The notes beneath the pieces are model-generated. The model was not told the origin of the DNA, searched no databases, and was given only the letters and a program-made list of their open reading frames with translations. From Paraspadella gotoi (Eukaryota > Animalia > Chaetognatha), in assembly GCA_051294375.1 (NCBI GenBank), contig CM119266.1, positions 5,255,210 through 5,319,209 of the forward strand: DNA of 64,000 nucleotides, read 5' to 3'. Numbering within the stretch: position 1 is the stretch's first letter; each line of letters starts with the position of its first letter. Shown in pieces: positions 4,985-55,400 of the stretch. A program made the position numbers and the translations under genes.

Positions 4985-5064
<80 letters not shown>

Positions 5065-11238: not shown

Positions 11239-14200
11239 TATTGATAAAATATTAAAAAAAACCATAAAATTCAGGCCAATGATGATAATGATGATGATTT
11301 TTTATCGTTTTTTTAAATTTTAACCAATTTCTTGTCAAAATTTAAAAAAATTGTAGTACTAACTTTCATTTAACTTTTCAAGCTCTGTAAGAATCCGTTC
11401 TTAAAAAATAAATTTAAATTTTTTTTTTTATTTGTTATATATTGATAAATATTTAAAAGCTTCAGTGCAACAACCCAATGAACTAATTCAAAAAGTTGCA
11501 TTGATAATCGATTTAGTAATAGAAGGAAAAAAGAATTTTTTTGAGAGAATTAGAAGTTATAAAAAGTGTTCAAATTTTGGCCCGCCTTACTGCATAGTCA
11601 AGCTTCATTTTTTTTTGTGATCTAAAACCATTCGAAAGAAAACTGTATTGTTTAAAAACTATCTGTTTCAGGTAGATGCGCGGAGGTTAATTTAGAGCGT
11701 TTATATTGAATTTTGACCAATAGAAAGGAAGGCCAGTTTTTTGCACGCTAAGCCTGTTAAGTCCGGCGGTCATTTGAAATCGTATTAAACAGGACTAATT
11801 AAAATAGATTGTTGGCCTATCGGCTACGGATAATGTTTAAAGCTGCGTTGAAATGGAACTCGTCTCGGCCTGTTATAGTTAGATTTTGGCATTCCTGGAA
11901 ATCAATACGTTCCAGACGGCCTTCCAGAAGTTTTTTTAATAATTTTTTTAACTCAAATTATATTAATATTTATTATCCATTATTCTCTCTTTTCTCTCTT
12001 TTACTCTCTTTTAACCAAATTTCGTTTTCTCTTCAAAATCTTACTAAAATCTGTCTTGAACTTACCCTGACCTCACTCTAAAGCACTGTCCTTTCTCAAT
12101 TCTTTATTGAACACTTTGGTCTCTCTGTTCTCTCTCCCTCCCTTCTCTCTTTTTTTTCTTGTGTTGAATCAGTGAAGTCAGTTTAAAAAGTGTTTCCTAA
12201 CTCTAATCTGCAAATCTGCAAATGGCTTCTACGTAAGTTTTTCTGATTGATTGATTGGTAAAAGAAAACCGACAACAAAACAAGGAAGAAAACGATAAAA
12301 AGACGGCATAGATGACGACGAAGACTGACGCGAAAATGACCGACGAAGACGACGACGAAAACGACGAATGAAGAGGACCGACGAGGAAGACGACAAAGAA
12401 GGCGACGACGAAGACAACGACGAAAAGACGGCAACCGTCAAACCGACGATGAAGAAAACGCACGAAGAAGACAGAAAGCACGACGACGAAGGCATCACAA
12501 TGATACGAAAATGCGACAAAATTGACGAGACGAAAATCGACGATGACAAAGATGACAACGAAATTGAGACGAAAAGTGAATCGTGAAGAGGAAGACAAAA
12601 TCCAAATTTACATCCGAGATTGTCGTTGATTTATTCTCTTTCTTTCTCTCTGCTCTTCTCTCTCTCTCATTCTCTCTCCTTCACTCATACACGCATTAGA
12701 TTTTGTTTTATTTTACTATGAATTGATTCTCGCGTCAATGAATACTATCATCCGTATCAAATGATGATTATCATCACAGTCTATGAAATGACTGTCATTT
12801 CGCATCAATCATTTTGGTTATCATTACATAAAATGGGCGCGTCGCCACGCAAACCTTTGATCTCCTTCCTCCTTGTCCTCCGCCCTTTTTGATTGTCTAT
12901 ACAATCTCCGCCGATTTTTTTCGGTTTTAATTCTGCAACTTGAAAAAATCATGAATAAGCGTGAAAAAGAGTGTAAATTGAGATAAGAAAAAAAATTTAC
13001 GTCGTCGCATTACGCCAACCACTTAAATCAATTTCTTTATAAATTTTCGTTAAATGTTGCCGATACTAATATGTATCTTGTTGTTTGTTTCATGTTAAAA
13101 CTTGGAAATTTTACAAATATAAGATATTTAATTAAATTCAATAAGATGAAAAGTATGAGACAAATCTACTATCGTATAGAATATACGCCTAGAGTCTAGA
13201 AAACTGATGTATAGTGGATTCTAACATAATAGGAAGGAGAATACAGCAAATTTTAATACTCATGACATCAATTTTTCCTAGATGATAGCACAGTAAAAAA
13301 ACTTTCTGTAAAAAAATTATCGACATATGATTGCCGGGAGCATCGGGACTTTTCATGGTTTAAAAGATGGTGAAAAGGTGGGTAAGCAACAGGCTTGGGC
13401 AGTGCTACCATATGTTACTTTAGTTTTCCCCGAATTCTTTTTTTGCATATACTGGTGGTACATAACAAATGTAAACTTTAAAAAATATGGCGGTTACTAA
13501 AATATTTTGTAATATAAAATATTAATGTGTTGTGACTTTAACAGTTAAAAATTATGTTATGTACGTTTTTGTAATTCAAAGATTGATCTCATCTTTCATA
13601 TTTTTGAGTATACAGTAATATTCTTGTAAAATTGGAGTTCTTCTTTTTGTTTGTCGAATTCCCTGATGTTTTTGGGAATTTAGAGAATAAAAATCTCACC
13701 AAACACTTTGGTCCTAATCTTGTTCTCTATCTTTTTCACTCTTTTACTTCTATCATGAATTAATAGAACTTGGTTATAATTACTTATTACTCTTTAAATT
13801 CTATAGATTTTCCTGGCTTTGCTTTTTATAACGTTACTCTTATAGGCCCGATCGCGCCTAATCCGAAAAATCGCCGGATCTAAAGCTTCGGATACTACGC
13901 ATAGTACAATCCTTGTTGGATCAGAAATGAGTTAAAATTTTAAGCGACTAAACAAGAATATGAGGCAAAAAAGTTTGATCGTTTGAAGCCCGATTTTTGT
14001 GTGGCCGTGATCGTTTTTTGTAGATAACTTCGAACGAGATTTATCCCATTTTGAATATAATTTGCATGCAGTATATTGATTCAGAATCTGTCTATCGAGT
14101 GGTGCCAAATTCATTGAAAATATTAATGGTTTAGAAGATGAATGAGTGCCTATAGGCGCAAAAATACAACTAAATGATATTTTATCTATAAGAATGGAGA

Positions 14201-17087
14201 AGGTGGTAGAATAGTTATGAGAGAGCGATTTTGGAAAATGTTACTAGTTTCAAGATGTATTTAGAATTTAATGCAAAATGTATTATTCTTTTTTTTTTCA
14301 GTATGAAGATTAGTGATTGTGAGAAATCTCTCTTCATAGAAGTTGGGACCGCTTGTCTCAAGGGTACATGACCTGTATTTGAAATTAATTGTACGATTAC
14401 AATTGTTACAAATCGGCTGTGGCTGGGGAAAGCAGTCAAGTAAACAGGAAGGAATGTGCTCTGCAAATGAAGTTTATTTATTTCTTTCTCAGTCTTCCGG
14501 TGCAGATTTAATCAGCCAGTTTTGAATGCTGGGAACAGAAACTAATATGTCAAAGCAGAGCATAGGCTGGTCCGTCTTGGAATCCTGTGGCAAGTCTATG
14601 GCACCATTTAGGGTTTGTTTTATCTCTTCTCTGTTATAACTTCAGAATGCCATTTGTACGAATGATGAGATTGTTTGCTAGATTGGTGTGATCGGACGCT
14701 CGCGCTCTTCCGCGCTTATAATGTGTGTTGATGGTCTTCCTGTTTAGGGTTTTTATGTTGATCATGTTGTGCTACGTCGGTTATGTGATGTGTGTTGTTC
14801 CGTCTTTATTCTTTTTTTTGGATGAAGTAACAATGTCTTTGAATTTTACAATTTTACAATTTTAAGTATCATATTTTTTTTGTAATCAAAATGATAATAG
14901 CATCGCCTTACTGATAGGCGTTCTGCTCTCTCTCTACATAAACGGTTTATGTTTTTATCATTAATTAATTGTATAACATAATTGGAATGACGCTGGTTTT
15001 AGTTTCCTAGGTAATTACACTTGAGCGATAGAGTGGCTGTTAATTGAAAAGAAATTTAAAATTGCATTTAAAAAATTGATTACTCGGTGTGAGTGAGAAT
15101 TTTTAAGGTTTACTGATAAAAAATTGCCCGATTTTTTAGTTGCCTCATAAACTGAACCTTAATCAAATTTAGAGTCGTTGTTTTTTTGAGACCGTGAAGT
15201 AGAATACACTTTCTTTGGCATAATAACAGATTCTACAAAGCTTTATGACAATTCTTGTGTTGAATGATTCCCGAGCCTTAACAAGGAAAAAAATTACATG
15301 GAAGAAAAGGTTGGAAACTATGCACCAAAAAAATACTATGTGACTATATAGCTATATATTTTTAAAATTAAAATCAACACCAAACCTATCGAAACACTGG
15401 CACCCAGTGATTTGGTGCGGTGTTAATGGTGAGTGGACGAAGAGCTGACACCGATTGCCGCAGGACATCCCTACCATAATCCCTCCCTAACCTACTTCAG
15501 AACCCTAACAATAAATAAAAAAAATCCCACCTAACCTAATTCAAACCTTAACTTAACCCTAAGCTAATTCGAACCTTAACTTAACCCTAACCTAATTCGA
15601 ACCCTTACTTAACCTTAACTTAAGCTAATTCAGAACCCCAACATAAATCCCTAACCGCAACCTAATTCTACACTCATCTAAACCCTAGTCACTAATACAA
15701 ATCAGTAACTATCTCCGCCTTAATCTACTAATTATAATCCTAGACTTAACATAATCTTTAATTTAAAAATGTCAAAATATTCGAATTATGATAAATACGG
15801 GAGTTTCTGGGAAAATAAGACCAAAAATATCAATGTCGAATGCTTAAGAGTACTTTTTCGTATGGTCCAGAGCAGTGAAATTATCCAGAGAACTCCATTT
15901 TTACTCTCTCCTTATATTGTTTAAATGATAATATATATTTCTAAGTATTGTGTGTTTTATTTTGTTAGCACTTCCGAATAAGTCATATTGATGGGGTGAT
16001 CTATTTATTCAAAATCAAATTTAAATTCATCTCAATAGGAATTTCTAGATTCTTTGAAATGATTCCATGGAAGACAAGTGCATCTGCTAATTTATTGAGA
16101 TAAGAAATTCATTGGTCCTCACATGCGGAAATAGGAAAATAAAACGAAAATCAAATTTAAAGGTAACATGATTTTATTTTTAATTCAGCACCGAATTTCA
16201 GAGACTTCAGTCTCTCTCAATCGTTTATTTTTGTTAAGTAGATAAGATAGAAGGGACCACTTCCAATTACAGAGTCAATATCTCAAATCATTTCTTGATA
16301 ATAAAGTAAAAAAGTAAATATAAGTAAAAACAAAACAATATACTAATATGTCAAATTTTAAATAGAATGCTGAAATTTTTTAGGTGAACCAAATTTCAAA
16401 ATTTTTATGATTTGAGGGGTCCTGTTGCAAGGTCCGTAGGCCTTTTATTCTGATGACGAGACACCTTTTCAGTCGTATGTCCACATTTTGATGCGGGCTA
16501 TGCTGATCCCAGGTGATGCTTGTTAAACCGATAATCTATATCCTGAATAATTGGTACCATAATTATATTCTTACTCAATACATACTAATTATTTGTTTTA
16601 TTCGTAGGAGTTTACCAAAATATATCGAAATAGTATTTTGAGTAAGCGCCTTGAATCCTCCGGATTTCGATATCTTTTCTTCTCCTTTCTGCCAGATGAG
16701 ACGGTATCTATGTTCTCTGTAAGGTCAAATTCGTAGCAGAAAAAGAAAAAAGAAACAGAAGAATAAAAATAAAGATAGAAAGAATCAAATAAGAATGAAA
16801 ATAACGCCACCAATTAATAATCAAATAAAAGAAAACAAGTTTGAGCAAACAATCAATAAAAGAAAACAAGTTTGAGCAAACAATGTCGGATCTGCCCACA
16901 ATAATTAAGGGGTAATACAGCTAAATAAATAAATCCTTCCTGACAGTTATGCTGGACAAATACATGCAAAATATAATTCGGCCAAGAATGATACCAGTAA
17001 AATACAGTGTAAAGTTGAAATTTGGACAAGATACTTGTTTCTCTGAATTCTTGTTCTGAACTAATCGATCATTCTTTTAAATTATAG

Positions 17088-21582: not shown

Positions 21583-31407
<9,825 letters not shown>

Positions 31408-31955
31408 TCACGTGACCGGAAGTGGGCGTGGCCACAAAGAATTACGATCGTTTCATTCGGCGAGATTTATTTTGGGTTTTTTTCCGCGGGATTTGGACGG
31501 ATTTATAATTTTTGGATTTACATTTATTCACGACGAACTAAATAAACAAAATTTTCGGTGTCGAGTCGAACTCGTATCTTTAAAAAAATACTAATTTGAT
31601 TTATTGTAAATGTTAATTTAATATATATTTGGCTACTCAATGCTTAAATAGGCGAATTTAACGCGACGGGAACGGAAGCCGTGCATGGTTTTTGTTTATT
31701 TTGGACGACTTTCGGGATCCTTAGTTACAAATTAATGTTACGATATTAAAAAAATAATAAAATTAGTACTGATTTATTATTGAATAAAATGAACACAGTC
31801 GAGTAGTAATGTGGAAGTTAGGAAATTGGTTTCCTGAATTATTTTTAAAAAATGACAACTGGAAAAACAAACTACATAATAATTGTTTGAAATCTAATTC
31901 TAGAAGTTCTACTAAAGATGTCGCGGCGGAAAATGAAAATAATTTCAACAAAAGA

Positions 31956-33556
31956 TCAGAGTAACCAAATTTTCGATTCGTTTCCTTCTTCGTCAATTTC
32001 CACGAGTTCTTTGCCTCGATCATCCTCCTCCTCTTCTTCCTCCTCCTCCTCCTCATCAGCCGTAACGCCTTCTCGTTCTTGTTGTTCCTGTTGTTCTACT
32101 TCCTCCACATTCTCGTCTTTGGGATCGAGACACAACAGCGCCTCCTCGTGATCGAAACTCGCGAGATAAAATCCATTCAGCGCCTCAAGATTCGGCTGCG
32201 AGTTCAAGTTGTTGTTATTGTTGTTAGCGGCGTCCTCGGCGTCGTTTTTATCCCCAAAGTCCTCGACGAACGGCGCCGCTTTCCACTCGACTCCGCCACT
32301 CACCGGCGCCTTTTCCAAAAACCCCGGATGTTGGCGCCAATTTCGACGTCTCTCTTCGATCTTAAATCGGTGTCGCTGGAGTCGATCCTCGTCTAAGACG
32401 CGATCCGGTTTCATTCCGATCCGAATGCATTTGCGGAGTCTACAGGATTGACAATCGTTGCGGGTCGATTTGTCTATGAAGCAAGAGTTGGAACGACGAC
32501 AGCTTTTTGGAAAAATGGGGTGGGGGAAATTGGGGGGGTAGTAGGTTAAACCTATTAGCGGTGAAAGTTGGTTGAATCGCGCTTATATTTTTCTGTTTCG
32601 AAAGAGTAACTCGTTTGTTTTTGTGATGCTATTGTTACCATAACCATATTATTTTTTTTTCAATTAGAGGAAAACAGAACTCTTAATAAGTAATTAGCTT
32701 TTTTGATTATTGTCGGGCAGATTAACAAATTGTTATTTTAGTTGGAAAAAAAACATTTTCTTACAGCATTCCGCCTACACCCCATCAAAGCTTTCAAACC
32801 TTTCCTACATAATTCGACGCACCTATACTCAAGCATCTTCTGCATCGATCGACGAAAGAATCCCTTGCATGCTTCGCACGTCAACGCCCCGTAGTGAATC
32901 CCCGACGCGTCGTCCTCGCAAACGCGGCACCGCTCCTTCGGCTGCTGCAGAATCTGCAGATATTGCTGCAGATCGACGCCTTTCGGCAGGATGCTGCGCG
33001 GGCGGAACGTTGGTGCTGCTGCGGCGATGGCTGCGGCGTCGAGGATGGAAGCGGAGGAAGTCGGCGACGACAAATCGGCGCCGATTTCGACAGCAGACGG
33101 AAACGAGACGAGAGATCCGCCCGTCGGCTGCAGCTCCTGCTGCCGCGGAGGGAAGTCTTCGCCTGTCCTTAAACTTACTCGTTCCGCTTCTCTCTCCCTC
33201 ACCATTTCCTCTCTCTCCCTCCCTCTTTCCGCAGCGCCTTCTAAACTCCTCATCCGCGCGCCACGTTCGTGCGTCGCCACGTGACGCCGAAAATCAGCGC
33301 CATCTTCGGATGCGTATCCGCATTTGACGCAAGAGAATTCGCTCTTCTTAAAATGGACGCGAGAATGTCGGTTGAGGTCGCTCGAGTAGTTGGTCGCGTA
33401 GGGGCACAACCTGCATCGAAAGGGCTTCCCGCCCGTGTGCTTCAACTGATGCTTTTTGAGATTAGTTTTGCTTTCGGTGACGTAGTCGCATTGGGCGCAT
33501 TTGTAGCGAGGGGTGAACGGGCGGTGTTGCCAATGCTTGGGCAGGATCGGTTCCAT
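31956..33556 (-). CDS. Chimeric transcription factor: 3x C2H2 zinc finger + nuclear-receptor C4 DBD + acidic tail, no LBD, 426 aa
   Basis: Exons 33556-32823 and 32502-31956 (GT-AG, phase 2). Three C-x2-C-x12-H-x3-H fingers at aa 20-96 with a TGGKPF linker. DBD at aa ~210-275: [66 protein letters not shown], with canonical spacing. About 150 aa of mostly E/N-rich sequence follows, ending at TGA. Confidence 0.92.
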
Positions 33557-33929
33557 GTGGGTTGTTTTTTTTATGAGTCTCAAAAGAAAAAAAATAACAA
33601 TTTTTTGGGATTATAATGGTTGTTTTTTTTTTGTTGTTTTTTTTATCAAACTTAATTCCTTGTAAAGCCCGTTTTTTTCTCTCCTTTATTAATTTCTCCC
33701 GGGTTATTGAATCCAAAACAAGTTTCTTTGAATTTAGTTTTTTGTTCTTATTATAGATCCAGGATCATGTTTCAAATTTTGCTTCCTTTTCCGCTTTGAC
33801 TTCAGGAAAGCAAAAAAACAAAAAATGTAACCGCGAGAAAGGAACTATAAGTAAAACTTGGCTTTTTGGAGTGACCTCTCCTCCTTGTTCCTATATCACG
33901 GTTTCGGGGTTTTCCCTAAAATTAACCTG

Positions 33930-34110
33930 CACTTCCGGACCAATAGGAACTAAGGTCTCTCGAGTCTCGACCAATGAGGGAACGAGGAAGTTTAAAAACG
34001 TTCGTCGCTTTTCTCGATCTGGCGTCGATCGTTCGGCGGCCACTCCGCGTTCGATCCCTGGACGGCGTTGACCAATAGGAAGCCGCGATTCGAGGCTGCG
34101 GAGGTCACGC
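33930..34110 (-). promoter_or_regulatory. Putative promoter of the ZnF-NR gene
   Basis: CpG-rich patch with three CCAAT boxes (33940, 33971, 34072) and an ETS-type CACTTCCGG (33930), 400-550 bp upstream of the ATG. Confidence 0.45.
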
Positions 34111-34757
34111 GGTATGAAATTTGAGAGGCAACAGCAGAGAGGAATAGGATATTAAGGACAAATTCGACAGCAAGGCCCCCGAAAAAGGAAGGAGTGTGCC
34201 ACTGGTGTTGAGGCTGTCGGAAATATATTTTTTGAAGGTAAATACTAATCGAAATTATTAATAAAAAATTAATAATTTAAATATTTCTAATTATTTGAAA
34301 TATAAATGATAAACTAAAAATGATTATTATCATTTTTTAAAAAATTTATGTATAAAAAATAAATCAATAGAAATAAATTATTATAACATTTTATATAATA
34401 TACATGACATTTATAATAATATTTTTTTTAATAATTGGATTATAATTATGTAATATCATTATAATCATTATAATTATTATATTAGTAAATTAAGTTAACA
34501 AAGTATCTCCGATTCTCGCTTAATCAAAATGATTTTTGCACAGCATGTAACTAAAAAAAAATTTTTAGGCTTTTTAGTTATAATCAATATAAGGGTAAAT
34601 TATATATATAAAAGTATTGAGCATACCTTTTACTATTGGTCATCTATACAAATGCGTTTTTTTCCGATTTTTTAATGTCCGGTGTACAACTGGACCAGTA
34701 AGTTTTGAGGAAGCCGGAGAGAGAGTGTTCGATAGAAACAAACGACCACGAGAGAGA

Positions 34758-34995: not shown

Positions 34996-36903
34996 TCATT
35001 GTAAACGATTGAACATCCACTGAAATCCGTCCTCCACTCCCTGCATATCTGAGAGATCGATTGAGTTGACCTAAATAAAACAAATGAACCATTCTAAATA
35101 TAGAAAAAAGGAAAGAATGTCAGGTAGACAGACAGACGGAAAAACCGTTGCCATTTAGCAAATTTTTGTAATTTCAATGATAATGATGCCGCGGCCAAAA
35201 AGAAAAAAAATAGTCCGAGGATTGCGGCGGTTGCTAGTTTTTTTATTTTTGCTATAATACTGTTAATAGTTAATACTATTAATAGCTGTCGTGATGAGAA
35301 TGATTTGATAAAATTACTATGATAATTGCTAAGAACATTCCTTTCGTTTCGTCGTTGGATTTATTTTGGTATTATGACCAGCAAGTTTTTAGTTTACTTA
35401 TAAAATAATTTTGAACAAACCTAATTGCAAAACAAAAGAAAGTAAAAAAAAATTATTTATTTTCTCCTTTTTTTTTTGGCTTTGCTGTCTCCTATATTTT
35501 CTTTGTTTTGCTTTCTTTTGATCAGTTTGGCTTTTTTGCGCTTATGTTTTGCTTTATGTTTTTTTGTGTGTTTTGTTTAGGTTTTCTCCGTTGTATTTAC
35601 CTGCCAGGGTCGACCCATGAGAAGATATTCTCGTTGAAACATGTGAACAACGTGGAATGCTGAAGCGTATTTTACTGTAGAACCTTTTTTGAAAGAAAAA
35701 AATGAAATCAGTTGAGTTAAAAAATGTCGCTTGGACGTGAGGGTGATTGATTGATTGATTGATCGCGAACGATATTAAGTATTTATTTTGATCAAGAGAG
35801 TAGTTTACTGGTACTGATGGACTGATTGACTGACAGCGATTAATTGGTTAGAATGTCGCGTGATTGGTTGTGATTGGAAGACGCAATTGATTACTTGGTT
35901 AAAACACTACGGAAAAAAACCTGTCAGTAAATAATACACAGTAGATTAAATTGTTTGGCTACAGCTAAACGAAGGCGGAACATTAATTGAGAGATCAATC
36001 AAACCAATCATTTGATTTATACGTACATTGATTGACTGATTTCTCGATCGCTTAATTATTTGATTTAGAGATTGATTGATTGATTGACTCACCCTCCACC
36101 TCCGCCTTGGCGATCTCCCTCGAGTTCCTGCACGAGAGAACCAGCAGCGGCGCCGCCTTCTGCGTCAGCGCCGCCGAGTGGGCGCGGCGTCGCAGCAGAA
36201 TCGCCAATTCGTCGTTCCACGGCCGCCGGGCGCCGCCGACCGGCGCTGCTGCGGCTGCAGCGGCGGGGGAAGCGGCGTCGACTTCCTCCGCTACTTTGCA
36301 GGCGTCGACGACGTAGACGAAGGCGTCCGCTTCGTCGAAGAGGGCGTGGAAGCATGGGGCGAGACGAACGACGCGAGAGTCTGGATTAGAGAGGGCGTTG
36401 TCGTCGTCGTCGTCGAGGTGGTCGTCGTTGTTGTCGTCGTCGCCAAAGTTTCTGATGAGGAGTCGACCGAATTCGAATCCGTCGGGACTCGCCTCTCGTT
36501 CGGCCTTTTTGGGGGGGGGCAGTGGGGGGGTAAATGCTTGAAAAATTAAATATTTACAAAGAAATATGAAAAAACCGATTTATTTAGTATAGTTTTTTCT
36601 ATGGATAAACGTAGGAAACTTTCTGATAAATTTATGAAATGATTTTTTTTATATTAGACTTTTTCTTTTAATTTACAACTAGTCCTAATGGGACAGAAAA
36701 AAATATTAATATATTTTCACATATTGTACCACATTCATATATATCATATGCATATCATATATAAATTTCAGTAAGTGTTCACCTTGAAGGAATTATAAAT
36801 CGTGATTAAAGTAAAATGAATTCCACGAAATTCGATGGAGATTCCAGCACCGACTCCGTTGTTTCCTGTCGGAACCAGGCCTGTCACCTGGGAAAAGAAA
36901 TAA

Positions 36904-36939
<36 letters not shown>

Positions 36940-38534
36940 ATGTATAAATAAATGTAATAAATAAATAAATAATGTATAAAAAAATAAATAAATGTATAAT
37001 AAATGTATAAATAAATGTAAAATAAATAAATTATTGTATAAATAAATGTTTAAATAATTGTATAAATAAATGTATAAATAATAAATATATGTATATAAAT
37101 AAATGTATCAATAAATAATGTATAAATTAAATAAATAAATAAATATATTTATGTATTTAATATCATGAACTGACCCTGAATTCCGGCTGCCTAATTTTAG
37201 AATTGACGCCCAAAATGTTTTGCAACAATTTGCGTCCTCCTTTGAGCGAATTTAATCCAGAACCGTACAGGATTATCTGCGCCAAATGAAATGTCATAGT
37301 TGATTGTTAATATTTATTAAAAACGTGTTTAAATTAGGCAGTAATTAAAAATAAATAACTAACTAATATACTTAACGATGTTGTTACCTTGGGCGGTTTT
37401 TTGGGCGACATCATGTTCCAAATGGACATAAGACTTTTTCTAAAAATATCGTCTCTTTTTAATTCTTGCTCTTTTTTGAAATCCTTGTGTTCAGGATTGC
37501 AGGAAGTGTATATTTGCTTGGACGAGATTTTGCTGTGGAACAAATAATATGATCGCATTCAATTTGTTATAATATTAAAAATAACATTCTAAGTATAGAA
37601 AATATTTCTTGGAAGAGTGATGGAGGCCTTAAACCACCAAAGCCTGTCCAAAGTTAGGGGAAAGATAGCTTATTTATTAAAGGAAAGGATAATTTTTATA
37701 TTGGTTGTACCAATTTCATATAAATATAGAAAAATATATTAGGGAAATGTAGGCTTGTAAAAGAAAACGAAGATAATGTATTTTAAAACCAGGTACAAAA
37801 TAAATTTAAAAAAAAAACCCATAAAACCTTGGAACGCAAAGGACCCTAAAATCTACATCTGTCAACTCTACCCGTTGGGTTGACTGAAATTGAGAACATT
37901 TGGATCTTGAAGCGCGTGAGGGTTGAGGCTGTGGTTGATCATCGTCCACTTGTGGATGTCTCGTTTCAAAATCCCCCGCCAGAGGAGCTCGTCGTCAGAG
38001 AGGTTGTTCCAGATTCTATATGGCAAATCGGTAAATAAGAAGAAATAAATTAATATGATAATTGTTTTGTTTAATACAAATTTAGCTCATATTCTACTGC
38101 TTGTGATAATGAAATTAAAAAATTAATAATTTAGCGATTTGCATGTGAATACACAATAAATATCTTGGGAACAATACCAACTTTCAAATTATTGAATCAA
38201 CCAATGAACCTTTGTTAGTATCCCAGCTACATACGTCCAAAATGTCAATCAACTATTCAACCAATCAATAATTAAAATCACTAAAAAAATATAACAAACA
38301 AACTACAAACAACACACACATCGCGATTGGTTCCCCCCCCCCTCGCCTGCAAACTTGCGACGTCTTGCACAAATCTTGCGGGGACAAAAAATTGAAGATC
38401 TGCAAGAGCATGATGTCTGGCAGATCGTTGATGTGAAAAGGGGCGACCCTCTCCGTTGGCGGACTGCTCTGCCACATGGCCGATTGGTTTTGGATCAAGA
38501 GTTCCAGACATTCTTCGTCCAACAGGTATTCCAT
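34996..38534 (-). CDS. FBXO4: F-box only protein 4 orthologue, 417 aa, 8 exons
   Basis: Exons 38534-38347, 38015-37872, 37532-37388, 37276-37175, 36887-36783, 36504-36093, 35683-35601 and 35070-34996; phase-consistent, 1254 nt. F-box LPDIMLLQIFNFLSPQDLC...LLWRGILKRDIHKW. FBXO4-type C-domain motifs occur in order: LYGSGL, GVGAGISI, DAFVYVVDA, WNDEL, PLLVLSC, RPWQV, GVEDGFQWM. Confidence 0.88.
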
Positions 38535-38714
38535 TTTTTTGTGTGTGTTTAGGGGAGAAAGAGAGAGAGAGAGTGAGACAGAGACGGTTACGATTTTCAC
38601 ATCATAAATATGTCAGCCCGGTAGAAATATTTGTTATGCCTGGTGCTCGTCTTGCGAAAAAAAAATTTCAATCGATGTACTTCTGTCTGAGTCAGGATCC
38701 TGAATTTTCTTCGC

Positions 38715-42674: not shown

Positions 42675-42754
<80 letters not shown>

Positions 42755-43470
42755 CTCTGTACCAATCTCAAACTCAAAACGGTTCCATTTTTTTTAATTT
42801 AATTCAGATGTTAAAGAAAAGTAAAATTTGGCTCCTGACGAATTCGACGAAAAAGTAAAACGAACTTTTTTGTTAAAAAAAAAAGAAAAAAGAAAAAAGA
42901 AAAGAAGAATTTTCTTCGGTTTTGTTTGATGACAAATTCCTCAGGTTTTTCTTTTTTATGTCTTGATGATCATGATGATGATGGATTGATGATGATGACG
43001 ACCATGACCATGATTGTGACGACGATGAGTGTATATCCATTCTGATCATGTATGTAAAGTTAATTAAGAAATACTTCAATAATTATAATGACTATGATGA
43101 CGATGATGATTAACATCATTGCGAAAATAGTTCCAAGTTTGAAGAGTGAACTCGATTTGCGAATTTTTTATGACTCAAGTTAAAGAGGATCTTTTAAGTT
43201 ATTTTAAATCGACAACATTTTGAATCCTGAAACTATTTCAATAAATTGATGTTGTGTTAAATTTGCGAGTAACGAAGACGAAGAATTTATTTAAAAGACA
43301 CAAATATATCTTTATTTCTCGAGTTTTGTTAAGATTTTATACACATTCCCTTTGTATGAAATTGGCAAACTAAAGGATATCGAACGTTTATTTACATAAG
43401 TTAATAATTTTATTGCAGTATATATAAAAATGGTCAGTTTTTAAAAAATAAACAAATAACATTCCCTTTC

Positions 43471-43530
<60 letters not shown>

Positions 43531-43971
43531 TTGTATTAAATATTATTTTTCTCCCTCGTGAGACATTTCAAGTGTGATATTTTTTGCTTCATCAAGATTT
43601 TCGTGTTAAAAATGGAGAATTATTAAAACAGTGATCTAAAAAAAGTCAGTGTCTTTAAAATTAAATAACTAGTTTAGCTAATTTGAAAAATAGGAATGCA
43701 CCTGGCCCGGCATATATAAAATATTATCAATCTATGTAAATTAAGATTAAAATTTTTTTTTAAAAATGTAAAATCCTTATCATGAAGTAACGGTTTCTGG
43801 CCTGACTAATTTGTTAAAAAAAACATGATCTTATCTACTTGGCTAAATAGAAAAAATAATTCTGCCGCCTTACAAAAAAGGACAAGCAAATAAAATCGCC
43901 TCTTGCAAAAAGAAAATTTAAATTCTATTAATTAGTCTAAAGGGATCTGGAGGTCGTCGCGGATGACAACA

Positions 43972-44018
<47 letters not shown>

Positions 44019-46122
44019 ACGACGACTTTTATAATTTCGTCTCAATTTTCGCTTAAAAATCGCGACCTAATTTTTTCATAATTAGGGTTCGGATGAAGAG
44101 AAGGTGAAGATGAAGAGGAGGAGTTTGAAATGAAGTAGAATGAAGAATAGGTCGGGAGTAGAATGAATCAGGGGAGAATTGAAAAAAAGGTGAAATTTCG
44201 AGGAGTGAGATCGACAATTGGGTCAGAGGTCAGAATCTCGAAACAGAGAAACATCCATCAAATATGTCACAACCGAAGGATCGGTCGGTCGATCGGCGGC
44301 GTCCGTCGGTCGTTTTGTCGTTGACGATCGTAATGTCAACCATCAAAGTCGGATCGACACTTCGATTTCTCATTTTTATTTTTCCTTTTTATTATGAATA
44401 ATTTACTTTTATTATTTTTAATTACGAACCATTTGATCAACTTGATTTAAAAAGTTTTAAAAAATTTAGAAAACTCCTCAAACAACCGAATATAAAAGCT
44501 GTCTGGTCGCGAACGCTGAACTCGCGACCGACGAGAGCGCTCGAACGACGGCCGTAATCACCCGGATTTAGATTTAGATTTAGATTTAGATCAGAGGTCC
44601 ATGAACCCAAACCCTCGCCGGTTCTTCTCAGACCTCAGGATTTTCTCGCCGTAATAATGCCGCATTTCGTAATCTCACGGTATCGCTAGGGTACGAGATT
44701 AGTACATCCGCAGCATCTTAACTTATTTTCTCCTTTTAACCCAATATTCTTATCTCTTTATTTACTTTGTTATTCTCATCTCTCCTCCTCCTCCTCCTCC
44801 TCCTCCTTTCGTTAAACCCGTTCTCGATCCAGTTTTACCGAAAATCCGCTTTTTGCGAATCACGTTATCTCGAGTCGACGTTCGCGGTCGACGAAATTGG
44901 GTTTTTCGCGGTATTTTTTCGACGCGTCGAAAAAAATTACATAAATAAAAATTTTAAAAAAAGATAAAATAATAAGTAATAATTAATTAAATATATAATA
45001 AATGGTAAATAAATAATAAATTATAAATTAAATTTATAAAGATTCATTCTGGAACGAAACAAAAGTAGGTAAGTGCTGGCCAACAAAACAACAAAAACAA
45101 CAAAAACAACAAAAGCAAATAAAACAACAAAAACAACAAAAAACAACAAAACAAAATCAACTAAATAACAAAAGCAACAAAAAAAACATCAACAAAAACA
45201 ACAAACAAACAACAAACAACAAAAACAACATCTAAACAGCAGCAACATCAGATCTACTTCTTTGATTCACATAATAACTAAAATTTTGGTAAAATTACAA
45301 TTGGAACAAGTTGATCAGAAATGGTCATCCAAGATCGGGAAGCGAGTTCGTGACACATCCGGCTCAGAATTTGACCTGGGAGAGATCAACGAGGGAATGA
45401 TCCTTCCGAGACGGAGAGAGAAGGGTCGAAAGATGGAAGCAAGGATCGGAAGGGTCACTCGGTGAGAAAGGGAAGGGTCACTTGCTAAGGATCGGAGATC
45501 GGTAGAGTCATTTTTAGTGAGAAAGATTAATTTCTGCGAATAAACTCATTTATCTTAAAAATTAATTCAACTAACTAATTAAGAGTGTTTAATTGTAGAT
45601 GGTTGGTTTAAATGAATGGATAGATCGTGAAACGTTAGCTCAATTGAAACAAAGCGCTAAAGGTTTATGGCTTGAAATCCGATTTTAATTCATGCGAATA
45701 ATCTTACATTATTAAATAATAAATAAACCTAAATTAACCTAAAACTCTCACTTTCCAAGAAGTCAAAATCTTCTCCATCGAAAGTAAAAAAGTCAAATTC
45801 TCCACCGTCTCACGATTCCACGACACACGACACGACGACGACGACGACGACGACGACACTATGCCACGCCCACCTTCGACCTCCCGTCCTCCTCCTCCCC
45901 TCCGTCACCTCACCCACACCTCACCTCAAACCCTACGACTTTTGGTCGCCCCGAACGCGCATGCGTAAATTGAGAATTTGGAAAAACGTGATCGTTCTAT
46001 CGATAGGATTCGTTCTCATGTTCACCGCCTTTCAAAGCATCTCGAATCTGCAGAGTACGATGAACAGCGACGAGGGGTTGGGGACGTCGTCCTTGGCGAT
46101 GGTTTATGGTGAGAGGGAGGGG

Positions 46123-46161
<39 letters not shown>

Positions 46162-46183
46162 AAGAGAGAGAAGAGAGAGAGGA

Positions 46184-46237
<54 letters not shown>

Positions 46238-47111
46238 CTCATTCATAGCGACATTAGTCCGTCCCTTTTTTCATTCGTTCCTTTTTTTTTCTATTTCATC
46301 TGTTCCTTCTTTCATTCATCCGTCTCTTTCTCATTCATTACTATTATCACTTTTTTTTCCTTCAATCGTTAGTTCATTTTTTTTTATTCGTTCATTCCTT
46401 CCATTAATCCTCCATTCCTTCGTTCATTTCTATTTTCTTTCCTCCATCGACTCCCTCATTCCTTCCTTCTTTCCCTTCCTTCCCTCTTCCCTTCCTCCCT
46501 TCCTTCCTTCCTTCCCTTCCTTCCCTCCTCCCTTCCCTTCCCCTTCCTTCCTTCCCTTCCCTTCCTCCTTCCCTTCTTCCCTTCCTTCCCTTCCTTCCCT
46601 CCTTCCCTTCTTCCCTTCTCCTTTCTTCCCCTCTTTCCCTTCCTTCCTTTCTTCCCTCTTCCCTTTCCTTCCTTCCCTTCCCTTCTTCCCTTCCTCCCTT
46701 CCTTCCTTCCTTCTCCTTTCCTTCCCTTCCTTCCCTTCCCTTCCCTTCCTTCCCTCTTCCTTCCTCCCTCCTTCCTTCCTTCCTCTTCCTTCCTTCCCTT
46801 CCTTCCTTCCTTCCCTCCCTTCCCCTCCTCCCTTCCCTACCTTCCTTCCCTCCCTCCCTTCCCTCCCTCCACTCCCTCCCTCCATCTCTCCCAGCCGCCC
46901 TGGTCTTCTCCTGCATGTTCCTCCCGCCCGTCATCGTGGGTTTCCTCGGCTTCAAATGGACTCTGGTCATCGCCCCACTTTGCTACGGGTCATACATGGT
47001 CGCCCAACCTGGTCATCAACTTCATTCCTTGCGGATTCCACATTGGAGGCAACGCCGTCGAGGGAAAGCATTTCAGATGGTAGAGGGGCAATTGGCTATT
47101 GGTTGGGTGAA

Positions 47112-47190
<79 letters not shown>

Positions 47191-48013
47191 AAAGAAANNN
47201 NNNNNNNNNNNNNNNNNNNNNNCTGAAATGCTTTCCCTCGACGGCGTTGCCTCCAATGTGGAATCCGCAAGGAATGAAGTTGATGACCAGGTTGGCGACC
47301 ATGTATGACCCGTAGCAAAGTGGGGCGATGACCAGAGTCCATTTGAAGCCGAGGAAACCCACGATGACGGGCGGGAGGAACATGCAGGAGAAGACCAGGG
47401 CGGCTGGGAGAGATGGAGGAGGGAGGGAGGAGGGAAGGGAGGGAGGGAAGGGAAGGTAGGGAAAGGAAGGAGGGAAGGGAGGGAAGGAAGGAAGGAAGGA
47501 AGGAAGGGAAGGAAGGGAAGGAAGGGAAGGAGGGAAGGAAGGGAAGGAGGGAAGGGAGGAAGGGAAGGAAGGGAAGGAAGGGAAGGAAGGAGAAGGGAAG
47601 GAAGGAAGAAGGAGGAGGGAAGGGAAGGGAGGAAGGGAAAGAGGGGAAGAGAAGAAGGAAGGGAAAGAGGGAAGAAAGGGAAAAGCAAGGGAAGGGAAAG
47701 GGAAAGGAAGGGAAGGGAAGGAGGAAGGGAGGAGGGAGGAGGAAGGAAGGGAAGGAAGGGAAAGAAGGAAGGAATGAGGGAGTCGATGGAGGAAAGAAAA
47801 TAGAAATGAACGAAGGAATGGAGGATTAATGGAAGGAATGAACGAATAAAAAAAAATGAACTAACGATTGAAGGAAAGAAAAAGTGATAATAGTAATGAA
47901 TGAGAAAAGAGACGGATGAATGAAAGAAGGAACAGATGAAATAGAAAAAAAGGAACGAATGAAAAAAAGGGACGGACTAATGTCGCTATGAATGAGTTTT
48001 TCTCTCTCTCTCT

Positions 48014-48070
<57 letters not shown>

Positions 48071-48383
48071 CTCTCTTCTTCTCTCTCTCTCTCTCTCTCT
48101 CTCCCTCTCTCTCTCCCCTCTCCCTCTCACCATAAACCATCGCCAAGGACGACGTCCCCAACCCCTCGTCGCTGTTCATCGTACTCTGCAGATTCGAGAT
48201 GCTTTGAAAGGCGGTGAACATGAGAACGAATCCTATCGATAGAACGATCACGTTTTTCCAAATTCTCAATTTACGCATGCGCGTTCGGGGCGACCAAAAG
48301 TCGTAGGGTTTGAGGTGAGGTGTGGGTGAGGTGACGGAGGAGGAGGAGGAGGACGGGAGGTCGAAGGTGGGCGTGGCATAGTA

Positions 48384-48421
<38 letters not shown>

Positions 48422-49666
48422 TGTTGGGAATCGTAGAGACGGTGGAGAATTTGACTTTTCTACTTTCGATGGAGAAGATTTTTACGTCGCCTTGGAGTTT
48501 TTAGGTTAATTTAGGTTTATTTATTATTTAATAATGTAAGATTATTCGCATGAATTAAAATCGGATTCAAGCCATAAACCTTTTAGCGCTTTGTTTGCAA
48601 TTGAGCTAACGTTTCACGATCTAATCCATTCATTTAAACCAACCATCTACAATTAAACACTCTTAATTAGTTAGTTGAATTAATTTTTTTAAGATAAATG
48701 AGTTTATTCGCAGAAATTAATCTTTCTCACTAAAAATGACTCTACCGATCTCCGATCCTTAGCAAGTGACCCTTCCCTTTCTCACCGAGTGACCCTTCCG
48801 ATCCTTGACTTCCATCTTTCGACCCTTCTCTCTCCGTCTCGGAAGGATCATATCCCTCGTTGATCTCTCCCAGGTCAAATTCTGAGCCGGATTGGTCCGA
48901 ACTCGCTTCCCGATCTTGGATGACCATTTCTGATCAACTTGTTCCAATTGTAATTTTACAAAATTTTAGTTTATATGTGAATCAAAAGAAGTAGATCTGA
49001 TGTTGCTGCTGTTGTAGATGTTGTTTTTGTTGTTTTGTTGTTTGTTTGTTGTTTTTGTTGATGTTTTTTTTGTTGCTTTTGTTATTTTAGTTGATTTTGT
49101 TTTGTTGTTTTTTGTTGTTTTTGTTGTTTTTATTTGCTTTTGTTGTTTTTGTTGTTTTTGTTGTTTTTGTTGGCCAGCACTTACCTACTTTTGTTTCGTT
49201 CCAGAATTGAATCTTTATAAATTTAATTTATAATTTATTATTTATTTACCATTTATTATATATTAATTAATTATTACTTATTATTTTATCTTTTTTTAAA
49301 ATTTTTTATTTATGTATTTTCGACGCGTCGAAAAATACCGCGAAAAACCCAATTTCGTCGACCGCGAACGTCGACTCGAGATAACGTTGATTTCGCAAAA
49401 AGCGGATTTCGTGGTAAAACTGGATCGAGAACCGGGTTTAACGAAGGAGGAGGAGGAGGAGGAGGAGGAGGAGGAGGAAGAGGATGACAATTACAAAGTA
49501 AATAAAGAGATAAGAATATTTGGGTTAAAAGGAGAAAATAAGTTAAGATGCTGTCGGATGTACTAATCTCGTACCCTAGCGATACCGTGAGATTACGAAA
49601 TGCGGCATTATACGGCGAGGAAATGCTGTGAGGTCTGAGAAGAACCGGCGAGGAGTTTGGGTTCAT
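39534..49666 (-). CDS. UNC-93 family (UNC93A-like) MFS membrane protein, paralogue 1; 5' exons tentative
   Basis: Core exons: ~48490-48131 (RIWKNVIVLSIGFVLMFTAFQSISNLQSTMN), ~47403-47223, 42515-42343 (AAPMWTAKSSY), 42168-42105, ~42028-41935, 41669-41444 (WSGLEQGF), 41191-41080, 40945-40787 (WGISDAVWQTQIN), 40166-40004 (FANYRLWESTGF) and 39673-39534 (stop). Possible upstream exons at ~48927-48747 and 49666-~49577. The gene is interrupted by the inverted block 42581-47197. Confidence 0.85.
40287..40484 (+). repeat. Dispersed intronic repeat family (other copies ~22660-22756 +, ~37607-37720 +, ~59762-59895 -, ~62695-62823 -)
   Basis: Shared strings ctctggga.tgaataaac.agactgtgagagagtc and gagtgatggaggccttaaaccaccaaagcctgtccaaagt...gttgtaccaatttcata. 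Confidence 0.75.
45961..47078 (+). pseudogene. Redundant inverted copy of two 5' UNC93A paralogue-1 exons, with no downstream exons
   Basis: Exons 45961-46108 and ~46895-47078 are essentially identical to the minus-strand copy and end at the gap. Confidence 0.7.
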
Positions 49667-49772
49667 GGACCTCTGATCTAAATCTAAATCTAAATCTAAA
49701 TCCGGGTGATTGACGGCCGTCGTGTCGAGCGCTCTCGTCCGGTCCGCGAGGTTCAGCGTTCGCGACCGACAG

Positions 49773-49780
49773 CTTTTATA
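49773..49780 (-). promoter_or_regulatory. TATA box (TATAAAAG) upstream of UNC93A paralogue 1; mirrored at 44491
   Basis: Consensus TATA at the edge of a CpG-rich patch, ~110 bp upstream of the candidate ATG at 49666. Confidence 0.45.
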
Positions 49781-50242
49781 TTCCGGTTGTTGAGGAGTTT
49801 TCTATAATTTTTTAAACTTTTTAAATCAAGTTGATCAAATGGTCGTAATTAAAAATAATTAAAAGTAAATTATTCATAATAAAAAAGGAAAAATAAAAAT
49901 GAGAAATCGAAGTGTCGATCCGACTTTGATGGTTGACAATTACGATCGTCAACGACAAAAACCGACCGACCGATCGACCGACCGATCCTTCGGTTGTGAC
50001 ATATTTGATGGATGTTTCTCTGTTTCGAGATTCTGACCTCTGACCCAATTGTCGATCTCACTCCCGAAATTTCACCTTTTTTTCAATTCTCCCCTGATTC
50101 ATTCTACTCCCGACCTATTCTTCATTCTACTTCATTTCAAACTCCTCCTCTTCATCTTCACCTTCTCTTCATCCGAACCCTAATTATGAAAAACAAAATT
50201 AGGTCGCGAATTTTAAGCGAAAATTGAGACGAAATTATAAAA

Positions 50243-50292
<50 letters not shown>

Positions 50293-50750
50293 TGTTGTCA
50301 TCCGCGACGCCTCCAGATCCTTTAGACTAATTAATAGAATTTAAAAGTTTTCTTTTTGCCAAGAGGCGATTTTATTTGCTTGTCCTTTTTTGTAAGCGGC
50401 AGAATTATTTTTTCTATTTAGCCAAGTATAATACTTCTAGGAATCAGCATGATTTTTTTTTTTAACAAATTAGTCAGCCAGAAACCGTTACTTCATGATA
50501 AGGGATTTTACATTTTTAAAAAAAAATTTTAATCTTAATTTACATAGATTGATAATATTTTATATATGCCGGCCAGGTAGCATTCCCTATTTTTCAAATT
50601 AGCTAAACTAGTTATTTAATTTTAAAGACACTGACTTTTTTTAGAGCACTGTTTTAATAATTCTCCATTTTTAACACGAAAATCTTGATGAAGCAAAAAA
50701 TATCACACTTGAAATGTCTCACCGAGGGAGAAAATAAATATTTAATACAA

Positions 50751-50782
<32 letters not shown>

Positions 50783-51519
50783 GGAGAGAGAGAGAAAGGG
50801 AATGTTATTTTGTTATTTTTAAAAAAAAAACTGACCATTTTTATATATACTGCAATAAAATTATTAACTTATGTAAATAAACGTTCGATATCCTTTAGTT
50901 TGCCAATTTCATACAAAGGGAATGTGTATAAAATCTTAACAAAACTCGAGAAATAAAGATATATTTGTGTCTTTTAAATAAATTCTTCGTCTTCGTTACT
51001 CGCAAATTTAACAAACGATCAATTTTATTGAAAATAGTTTCAGGATTCAAAATGTTGTCGGATTTAAAATAACTTTAAAAGATCCTTCTTTAACTTGAGT
51101 CATAAAAAATTCGCAAATCGAGTTCACTCTTCAAACTTGGAACTATTTTCGCAATGATTGTTATCATCATCGTCATCATAGTCATTATAATTATTGAAGT
51201 ATTTCTTAATTAACTTTACATACATGATCAGAATGGATATACACTCATCGTCGTCACAATCATGGTCATCGTCGTCATCATCATCATCATCATCATCATG
51301 ATCATCAAGACATAAAAAAAGAAAAACCTGAGGAATTTGTCATCAAACAAAACCGAAGAAAATTCTTCCTTTTCTTTTTTTCTTTTTTCTTTTTTTTTTT
51401 AACAAAAAAGTTCGTTTTACTTTTTTCGTCGAATTTCGTCAGGAGCCAAATTTTACTTTTCTTTAACATCTGAAATTAAAAAAATTTAAAAAAATGGAAC
51501 CGTTTTGAGTTTGAGATTG

Positions 51520-51590
<71 letters not shown>

Positions 51591-52406: not shown

Positions 52407-55400
52407 ATGCAAAACTCAAACGGAGACGGTAGAGACAATTTCGGTTTCGCTTCATCCGACGACCAAAGAGAAGAGGAAAATCCGCCGGGTAAGTCTTCCC
52501 ATTCTCATCGGGTGAGTTTCAAAAAAGTAGGGAAGTGGAACAGTTGAAACGTTTTAATTGGGATGACCTTTTTTTCGTGGTGAAAACAACTTTTAAAAAA
52601 TATCATTAAGAATGTCACCGCACGAAAAAATTTATGTACTATAGAGTTATATATATGCTTTCATTGTATTAAAGTATGAAATGTTTTTATTAATATTAGT
52701 TTGACAAGCGATTATTATTTAACTATAGGAAGTATGCTTTCGGTCTGTGTGATTTCTGATTAGGAAATTGTTCATTTGTCGAATTCCATCGTGACTTTTT
52801 TCCTTTCGCCTTCAACCAGAATTCTTTGCTTCTGCGCATCAAATGTCAAAAAATCTTTTTCAGTCTTTTTGTGAATTTCACACTTTTATTCTCTCACGTT
52901 TACCTTCGGTTCGTGAATTTCTCGTCAGCGAACGGATTTTGTAAAAAAAATTTTAATTCTTTTATTGCCAATCTGGTTTAAAACATTTATTAGTTTTTAA
53001 CTTTTTTTTTCACCGATGATCCGTTTCCCTCAAAAGTTCAACGATGAAATACGTAAAAATTCGATCACTTTCTTTAATAAGTACTGATATAAGATATGGC
53101 GTTAATACTAAGAAACTTCGTGAACAAAATTAATGGACAAGAAAACGTTTATGATAAATTTTTTTAAAAAAAATCTCAGTGTAAGATAGTTTTTTTAAAT
53201 TCACGAAGTTTTTTAGTATTAACGCCAAATGCTTCACATTTTATCATCAATTAAAGCCAACCGTATTCAACTGGAAACACAAAAAATAATCATTTCTTCT
53301 CAATACTGTTAATAAATAATATGTAAATTCCTGACTATAATTTTCTATTTCAAACTATTTCAGGCTACGACGACATCGATAAGATGAATTCCGATGGATC
53401 GATCGTCGTGAATCCCAAATTCACTCAGCAAGATTCACAACCAGGTAACTTATTCATTTGGGTAATTATTTTTTTTGGGTAAAATATCAAAAATGTAATT
53501 TTTTATGAGATATTTTGTTTTTCAATATCTTCTCGATTTTTTTTTAGTTGCAGCCCTCAAATGCCATCTGTCTCTGATACTGACATTTCTGTGTTTCATT
53601 TAACCTCGTAGTCTTTTCAAAATGTTCTGCTTCAAAATTAAGAAAAAGTTATACAATTTGTGTTTCACATTTTTTCATGGCAAATAAATTACTAATAAAC
53701 AACTCGTAATAAAACTACCAGCGTTTATAATCTACATAAAACTACGTAACAAATTCGTTTCTCACAACACAGATAATTAATTCCCCTGCCATTACTTTTT
53801 TTATCCCTCCCCCAACCGACAGGAGTCCTCAACTTTTGGTCTCCTCGAACTCAGATGGCAAAACTTCGGATTTGGAAGAACGTATTGATTCTCTCATTCG
53901 GCTTCGTTCTCCTCTTCTCCGCCTTTCAGAGCATCTCGAATCTCCAAAGCACAATGAACAGCGACGAAGGGTTGGGGACGTCGTCCTTGGCGATGGTTTA
54001 CGGTGATTACGCTGTAGACAGGGTTGTCCGATTGAAATGGACGGCTTGTATGTGGAGTTTATCTTTGTTGAAAATGTTTGTCTGAATTGGATGCATTCTT
54101 ATATTCCAACACGGAAGAGTTAACATTTTCTTAATTTAGGCACATTGTGTAATATATTAAAGTTAGTAGGCATGGATTTCAATACAAAACTAAGTGAAAT
54201 CTTACATGTTAAATACAAATTTTAATCCAAACGTCGTCTCCTTTGGAGTTGTGATTATAAAATCCAATTAATCTAAACAATGCAACAATTTATTCCTTCT
54301 CTTCTTCCTCCTCCTATTCTTCCTTTCCTTCTTCCTCCCCCTCTTCTTCCTTCCTCTTTCCTTACTCCCCCTACCCTTCCCCTTCTTCCTTCCTCCCCTC
54401 CCTCCTCTCCCCTCCCTCCCTCCCTCCCTTAGCCGCCCTCATCTTCTCCTGCCTCTTTCTCCCTCCCGTCGTTTATTGGTTTCCTCGGATTCAAATGGAC
54501 GCTGGTGGTCGCTCCTATTTGCTACGGGTCATACATGGTCGCCAATCTGGTCAAGAACTTCATTCCCTGCACCATTGATGTCAACGGCGACGAAGTCGAG
54601 GGACGATATTTCAGATGGTGAGGGGAGGCGTTGACAGTTTGCAATTTTGGGTCATCGTCTTAGATTTCTCTGTTTAATGATTAGTTTATGATTAATGTTT
54701 ATTTAACTTTTTTTGTTGGGGCGCCTAAAGACTTGTTGTCCGTTAATCAAGCCTCAAACCAGCTTTAAATCGGGTTATGGATTACGAAGCTGAGATTAAA
54801 ACTAGGGATAAGCGGTGGTTAGTGTCTGAAGGCAGTTTAAGGGCGTTCCCTGAGATGATACAGGTTGGGGAATGGTACCGGAATTAGCTAGCCACTGCTA
54901 GCCACTGCTAGCCACTGCTAGCCACTGCTAGCCCCTGCTAGCCACTGCTAGCCACTGCTTGCCACTGCTTGCCACTGGAACCAGTCTGTTACTGTCATCG
55001 GGATTTAAAATTGTGTGTTGCCACCAAGATTAACTAATCTCTCCCCCCTCTCACGTTCTAAAGGACTGTGATGATGCTGTCCGCTGCGCTGCTGGGGCTG
55101 AGCGCGGCGCCGATGTGGACGGCGAAGTCTTCGTACATGACGGAACTCGGGATTATGTATTCGAAATTGACGGGAGAAACGAAAGAGGCAGTCATTAATA
55201 GATTCTTTGGAGTTTTCTTCTTATTCTTTCAATCCGGTGAGTTTGGGATGTTCATTTGTTTCTAAATAAATGAATAAATGAATATAGGCATGAATAGATA
55301 AATAAATGTAAAAAAGTACTTAAATAAGTAAGTAAATGAACAGATAAATTAGAAAAATCAACAGAAAAATCAATGAATTAATAAATCAATTTAATTTAAT

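Follow-up and report, generated by a model that had tools for sequence, protein, structure and literature searches.

Can a nuclear receptor (NR) DNA-binding domain (DBD) be joined, in a single germ-line gene, to a DNA-binding domain of a quite different kind? The question is raised by a locus in the chaetognath Paraspadella gotoi (GenBank assembly GCA_051294375.1, contig CM119266.1, positions 5,255,210 to 5,319,209 of the forward strand). We refer to this stretch of 64,000 nt as the window, and give all positions within it. A preliminary description, made from the sequence alone, had reported a DBD fused to three C2H2 zinc fingers with no ligand-binding domain (LBD). We find that this is a spliced gene for a protein with three C2H2 fingers and an intact NR DBD, and no LBD. 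From its sequence we put at about 0.5 the probability that it encodes a ligand-independent, monomeric transcription factor in which both modules read DNA.

The transcript and the modules it encodes

The gene has two exons on the minus strand, and its spliced open reading frame (ORF) comprises 426 codons and a stop. The coding part of exon 1 (33556-32823, 734 nt, aa 1-244), which is based on the ORF model and an RNA contig, is followed by a 320-nt intron (32822-32503) with GT..AG ends, which interrupts in phase 2 the Ser codon before the fifth Cys of the DBD. The coding part of exon 2 (32502-31956) closes with a stop codon at 31958-31956.

With regard to evidence for the transcript, four of the 11 listed public sequencing runs (X1, X5, X6 and X9) were aligned to 29700-34700. 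No listed run is on record as RNA, and X6 and X9 were taken as RNA from their spliced contigs; X6 is cDNA-like, as its contigs for the neighbouring FMO gene are without introns and have poly(A) loose ends. The splice joint 32502/32823 is present in X6 (side 255) and X9 (side 22), but not in X1 or X5. The most informative sequence is X6 record 21, a single contig of 1,552 nt in which 33872-32823 is joined to 32502-32096 with three letters differing. It takes in the 5' untranslated region (UTR), the C2H2 triplet, the linker, the DBD on both sides of the intron and the greater part of the tail. As this one cDNA-type contig leads from the 5' end by way of the fingers and the linker through the exact splice, the fusion was not created by the assembly or by the gene model. 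The preliminary description had one 734-nt exon carrying the three fingers, a linker and the first DBD finger, and one GT-AG intron before the second C4 finger is completed with all its cysteines. This is borne out by record 21, which also covers 33270-32930 with no chimeric join in the linker, by the joint in X6 and X9, and by the nine intact Cys residues.

The frame of exon 1 continues for 27 codons into the intron (32741-32822, minus strand, with four Cys) before meeting a stop, and unspliced RNA would be expected to yield the C2H2 fingers and half a DBD. One X9 contig, of a divergent version discussed below, crosses the boundary of exon 1 and intron and may be DNA or pre-mRNA.

The C2H2 fingers start at aa 20, 48 and 76, each with the pattern C-x2-C-x12-H-x3-H and with linkers of seven residues between them. 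They form a tandem array by pattern and by Pfam, zf-C2H2 scoring 35.7 bits on the exon 1 frame (cut-off 25.2) with two stretches passing. The recognition residues at -1, +3 and +6 are S, N and K in finger 1 (33437..33505, minus strand, aa 18-40), Y, D and R in finger 2 (33353..33421, minus strand, aa 46-68) and D, D and R in finger 3 (33269..33337, minus strand, aa 74-96). They had been called well-formed Kruppel-type fingers, and all 12 zinc ligands are indeed present, but the fingers are of the C-x2-C-x-Y kind, finger 3 has F in place of the usual L, and only the first linker (TGGKPFR) is TGEKP-like, that between fingers 2 and 3 (FKKSEFS) being atypical. Exon 1 folded poorly as a single sequence (mean pLDDT 52.8), and the model was used for fingers 1 and 3 only. 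Finger 1 is predicted as beta-beta-alpha at pLDDT 70-85 and finger 3 as beta-beta-alpha with a helix continuing to aa 130; finger 2 is unfolded in the same low-confidence model. The linker that follows (32930..33268, minus strand, aa 97-209, about 113 aa) has a charged helix-like stretch and then a Ser/Ala/Pro-rich part, and aa 98-182 had no match in Pfam.

The DBD has the two C4 fingers, C-x2-C-x13-C-x2-C and C-x5-C-x9-C-x2-C, that are described for NRs in the available part of PMC10497141, and Pfam zf-C4 matches both exon frames (55.8 and 44.3 bits, cut-off 21.1). The first finger (32823..32929, minus strand, aa 210-244) carries the P-box CEACKG followed by FFRRS, and the second (32412..32502, minus strand, aa 245-275) carries the D-box CRRSNSC and ends in GM. 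The C-terminal extension of 25 aa (32337..32411, minus strand, aa 276-300) appears to be of the NR1A/I/J type seen in TR, VDR and HR96, with a T-box and then a long basic A-helix. Of 23 positions at which 80% or more of 96 comparison DBDs agree, this DBD keeps 22, among them the nine Cys, and it is at most 54% identical to any DBD compared.

The position of this DBD among the receptors is less clear. In comparison with solved structures the second finger with the extension best matches TRβ (44.9 bits vs 32 for the next), but for the first finger TR gives 42.8 bits as against 48-49 for ROR, EcR, ERR and Rev-erb. With the extension alone HR96-like and VDR-like sequences score above TRs, the group labels resting in part on motifs. 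A first tree kept 97 of 152 rows, the query included, and 46 rows were chosen for a second; the sampling has few or no named NR1B/C/D/H or NR0A members. In the second tree (94 columns) the DBD lies outside the TR clade (support 99/98) with no firm placement elsewhere; the nearest rows by path are TRs, and a sister grouping of TR and query is not rejected (p-AU 0.454). In TRs the P-box is CEGCKG throughout, and there is an N-terminal signature that they share (PMC2045677, in part). The gene has CEACKG, and nothing corresponding to the signature (G/P)YIPSY(M/L). We do not treat it as a TR derivative, as the exon 2 match favours this but the first finger and the extension alone do not, and the trees leave it unplaced. 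Nor do we trust the pairing with an unnamed long-branch sequence (P0109) at 92/69 in the 46-row tree. The P-box EACKG is one residue off the NR1 P-box EGCKG, and is also found in the second DBD of some rotifer receptors with two DBDs (PMC10497141, in part). On its sequence the DBD is best called divergent NR1-like with a long A-helix, and is not assignable to a subfamily.

No LBD was found. Pfam Hormone_recep had no match in the gene, and no LBD was seen in 204 of 216 selected GC-richer ORFs, the window holding 594 ORFs of at least 45 aa. With an LBD profile built from 58 post-DBD receptor segments there was no match in the tail or among the window's six-frame pieces (2,617 in number, best E=0.51); in a control, with the profile rebuilt without the relatives of the control, 4 of 5 forty-residue LBD pieces were recovered at E<=0.05. 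The domains are thus those that the preliminary description expected, zf-C2H2 and zf-C4 with no Hormone_recep, and the contigs of the two RNA-like runs agree with it in showing no splicing onward from exon 2. By Pfam, the LBD profile and the RNA contigs the protein is without the LBD of a canonical NR, and from its sequence it can be placed in the DBD-only structural class of NR0A, to which it adds a C2H2 array. The tail had been given as about 150 aa of acidic/Asn-rich sequence. It is acidic and has no similarity to an LBD, but about 25 aa of this length belong to the T-box and A-helix of the DBD, and the acidic tail proper is at 31956..32336 (minus strand, RNA-covered) with 32% D+E over aa 303-426. 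No knirps box was seen by eye in the sequence.

Function and rival explanations

If both modules read DNA, the gene could be the product of domain shuffling specific to its lineage, to which a C2H2 array gene contributed the fingers and an NR1-like receptor, stripped of all that follows the A-helix, the DBD. In the DBD the P-box helix still has its base-reading residues E, K and R, and the domain would recognise a half-site like AGGTCA with help from the long A-helix. A GC-rich 9-mer alongside would be the target of the C2H2 triplet, which has K/R/R at +6 and N/D/D at +3 and would stand in for the dimer partner and supply its affinity. With a flexible linker of about 110 aa the distance between the two sites could vary, and the acidic tail would serve for constitutive activation in place of AF-2. 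Lacking an LBD, the protein would have neither a ligand switch nor AF-2, nor the usual surface for RXR heterodimers or LBD dimers. In favour of this reading are the contig through the whole fusion, the intact DBD with its NR1-like P-box, the full set of C2H2 zinc ligands, the negative LBD searches, the second version of the gene that is described below, with its match across the linker and its balancing indels, and the promoter-like motifs at the RNA 5' end. C2H2 proteins and NRs are known to cooperate in trans on composite elements, as CTCF does with TR (PMC6348741, in part).

Several points weigh against this reading. The short linker ahead of finger 3 is unusual, and a connection as long as that between the two modules enforces little cooperativity. 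Acidic tails can also inhibit. No orthologue was found, the best single-stretch matches among 1.84 billion representatives being at about 51 bits and 43-52% identical. The remaining points concern the second version of the gene.

This second version is 7-9% diverged, and matches from finger 3 through the linker into the DBD. In X5 and X9 the variant has 22 differences in 256 nt and two balancing gaps over 32888-33143 (linker and DBD), and in X1 and X9 it has 17 differences in 232 nt over 33117-33348 (finger 3 and linker). Its -1/+1 indels near 32975-32984 cancel out, and diverged flanks are seen within both the intron and the 5' UTR. In one X1 contig 33513 is linked to 33685 by unknown sequence that would take the place of the first 14 codons. 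Other variation at the locus does not exceed about 1% (three differences in X6 record 21, six in 708 in X5 record 9), and because of this the second version, on the evidence of short contigs, looks more like a paralogue than an allele. It suggests a fusion older than the 7-9% split. The listed coding changes are a mix of silent and non-silent (I202L, R211P; 40 of the 99 variant rows), and the non-silent ones may reflect relaxed constraint. Also, the second version is known from short overlapping contigs only, which show its frame in parts.

Such observations bear on the strongest of the alternatives, which we nevertheless think unlikely: that the gene is a young or decaying chimera in which one module or neither works, the other being carried along under weak selection. 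The failure of the protein searches to find an orthologue is as expected for such a gene, as are the extent of coding divergence between the versions, with some changes non-silent, and the unusual features of finger 3 and of the linker ahead of it. C2H2 is also the family with the most varied domain arrangements of those compared in the available part of PMC5291267, with a correlation of 0.92 between size and number of arrangements. However a DBD that is so distant from all others and yet retains all but one of the conserved positions implies long purifying selection on that domain, and the C2H2 ligands are all intact and the listed indels of the second version compensate each other.

A somewhat more doubtful alternative is a dominant-negative competitor or repressor like knirps or v-erbA, in which hormone response elements would be occupied by a DBD that no ligand controls, with the C2H2 fingers as an anchor or protein contact and not a second reader. 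NR0A receptors have a repressor role, although our literature search on this returned nothing. The intact NR1-like DBD with its A-helix and no LBD would suit such a protein, and there are precedents in the existence of LBD-less NR0A receptors (PMC7827873, in part) and in PLZF-RARα, which carries C2H2 fingers ahead of an NR DBD (PMC6348741, in part). However the strongly acidic tail is more like that of an activator, the fingers carry typical base-contact residues, and no PxDLS (CtBP) motif was seen in the sequence.

It is very improbable that there is an isoform splicing from exon 2 to LBD exons elsewhere, giving a C2H2-DBD-LBD receptor. There is a phase-0 donor of good consensus (CCG/GTGAGT) at 32303, just 3' of the A-helix, and contigs do lose rare isoforms. 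However no joint interrupts the X6 and X9 contigs at 32303, X9 record 24 (31969-32504) bridges the acidic repeat and X6 record 20 covers from the stop to 31736, no LBD-like piece was found in the window, and a highly expressed convergent gene (FMO) lies downstream. An assembly chimera of two unrelated genes can largely be dismissed. The assembly of the window is imperfect, with short N gaps and with inverted duplicates of which one, across an N gap, is about 99% identical by substitutions. However the fusion is spanned by a single cDNA-type contig, X5 contigs from a study other than that of X1 overlap to tile 32888-33609, and the gene is more than 5 kb from any N.

A DNA-reading role for both modules is the interpretation that we prefer. 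The gene offers a case in nature for asking if control by ligand and dimer partner can be given up by a receptor DBD in exchange for a tethered zinc-finger reader, and its modules are assayable separately and together, although the lack of orthologues limits its weight.

Transcript ends and neighbouring genes

At 33872 X6 record 21 has a 21-nt loose end, which looks like a template-switch adapter, and transcription probably starts there, though contigs are no proof of a start site. The 5' UTR (33557..33872, minus strand, 316 nt to the end of the X6 contig) has one upstream ORF of five codons at 33768. A motif scan at the RNA 5' end gave a likely core promoter at 33873..34080, with ATTGG (CCAAT-box) at 34076, 33975 and 33944, an ETS-like site CCGGAAGT at 33938 and an initiator-like TCA.T. 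motif starting at 33874, all on the minus strand. Three CCAAT boxes in 300 nt has a shuffle p of 0.015, for a region picked post hoc. The probable 3' UTR, predicted on the minus strand at 31736..31955, is based on X6 record 20 (31736-32013) and has AATAAA at 31778.

The convergent FMO gene (21583-31763, plus strand) contains introns and is spliced. The preliminary description had it end 550 bp beyond the receptor gene, and its stop codon at 31407 is indeed 549 bp beyond the receptor stop, but its mRNA reaches a poly(A) site at 31763. The 3' ends of the two transcripts thus abut or overlap by about 30 nt (31736-31763), a possible route for antisense interference. The best solved-structure matches of FMO are trimethylamine monooxygenase FMOs (best E 1.6e-18), which we take to be bacterial-type, and loose ends at 30270/30301 suggest further FMO copies. 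An exon at 27101-27397 (plus strand) that matches Pfam Il2rg (PF15874, E 4e-12) is inside one FMO intron, as the FMO exon at about 24416 joins 29867. The interval holds N gaps and long simple repeats, so this exon is from a nested gene or is misplaced sequence.

Upstream of the receptor gene and on the same strand is an F-box gene (about 35000-38612, minus strand, F-box E 8.6e-10), with later exons that look like FBXO4. Further away, 42695-47076 and 47223-51588 are an inverted duplicate of part of an UNC-93-like gene around an N gap (47198-47222), about 99% identical by substitutions and likely to be an uncollapsed haplotype or a fold-back. The first exon of the UNC-93-like gene recurs at 53832-54006 in a third copy (82% identical). 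At the other end of the window 958-8616 and 9099-17087 are further inverted duplicate blocks, with 82-92% identity and Asp/Glu-type simple repeats, and with no Pfam matches on the ORFs scanned.

Relatives and known systems

HMMER with exon 2 against 1.84 billion representatives gave 544 matches with no close relative. The C2H2 pattern was present in three of the best 150 of these, and on Pfam only one (P0076) gave C2H2 matches. A word-based search with exon 1 gave one sequence from 970 candidates, a plain C2H2 array, and that with the first-finger region gave no relative. A two-domain profile was swamped by long C2H2 arrays, and the absence of NR DBDs from the best 120 of its 5,569 matches is weak evidence. 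The Atlas clusters had C2H2 or unassigned domains only, none with zf-C4. Because no orthologue was found, this is on present evidence likely to be a lineage-restricted gene rather than a class.

Among the matches, LBD-less proteins carrying from 3 to 6 zf-C4 stretches were frequent (P0003, P0008, P0011, P0013, P0017, P0049, P0081 and P0055), and P0055 has an aminotransferase class V domain with its four zf-C4 stretches. The DBDs of P0115 and P0114, from the nematodes Trichuris and Caenorhabditis auriculariae, are inside the TR clade (99/98). THR is listed as lost in ecdysozoans in the available part of PMC7827873, and ecdysozoan THR genes have already been mentioned in 10.1101/2025.01.27.634690 (in part).

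In the literature we found no description of a natural gene with C2H2 fingers and an NR DBD by full-text searches, the scope of which excluded subscription journals, InterPro and most supplements. There was nothing on the architecture in the accessible parts of PMC5291267, PMC4434323, PMC8122590 and 10.1101/2025.01.27.634690, and no such gene at the first two zf-C4 places in the supplements of each of PMC5291267 (of 142) and PMC3499355 (of 3). The atypical receptors named in PMC10497141 and PMC7827873 (both in part) are DBD-only, LBD-only and two-DBD forms, and what is new in comparison with those listed is a receptor DBD that, in a transcribed germ-line gene, is combined with a DNA-binding domain of another kind. 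The preliminary description knew of no described class with a C2H2 array, which is consistent with the literature found, but the pairing is not unique, as it occurs in PLZF-RARα and in a C. briggsae gene model.

In the case of NR0A, the LBD-less receptors such as knirps, knirps-related, egon and ODR-7 (PMC7827873 and PMC10497141, in part), the likeness is in an intact two-finger NR DBD with no LBD. The gene differs in its three N-terminal C2H2 fingers and in its long-helix extension of the TR/VDR/HR96 style, in a comparison for which the trees had no named NR0A.

In the case of TR (NR1A) and of NR1I/NR1J (VDR/PXR and HR96) the likeness is in the second finger and the extension, TRβ being the best structure match. 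The gene differs from TR in having HYGALTC where TRs have HYRC(I/M)TC, in its P-box EACKG, and in having neither the N-terminal signature nor an LBD.

The 2DBD-NRs resemble the gene in having two DNA-binding modules per receptor, and EACKG in some rotifer second DBDs, but in them each module is a C4 DBD, and they also possess an LBD and a G-box extension (PMC10497141, in part). The gene has one zf-C4 domain, and the trees do not group it with 2DBD-NRs.

PLZF-RARα is likewise a single chain in which an NR1 DBD is preceded by C2H2 fingers. However it is an oncofusion, the product of a somatic translocation and not germ-line, with BTB/POZ, two fingers and an intact LBD (PMC6348741, in part).

CBG19506 of C. 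briggsae (P0076) has zf-C4 and C2H2 in one predicted protein with no Hormone_recep match, but in reverse order, with three divergent DBDs and then weak C2H2 fingers below the Pfam cut-off. It is a singleton known as a gene model alone, is 25-39% identical to the P. gotoi gene over short stretches only, and is likely to have arisen independently. It is tempting to suggest, but only tentatively and with the odds against it, that C2H2 arrays and NR DBDs have fused repeatedly in invertebrates, here and in CBG19506, each time without an LBD, and make up an unrecognised recurrent class. If so, the zinc-finger array would replace both the dimer partner and the ligand switch, and would hard-wire a cooperation that vertebrates achieve in trans.
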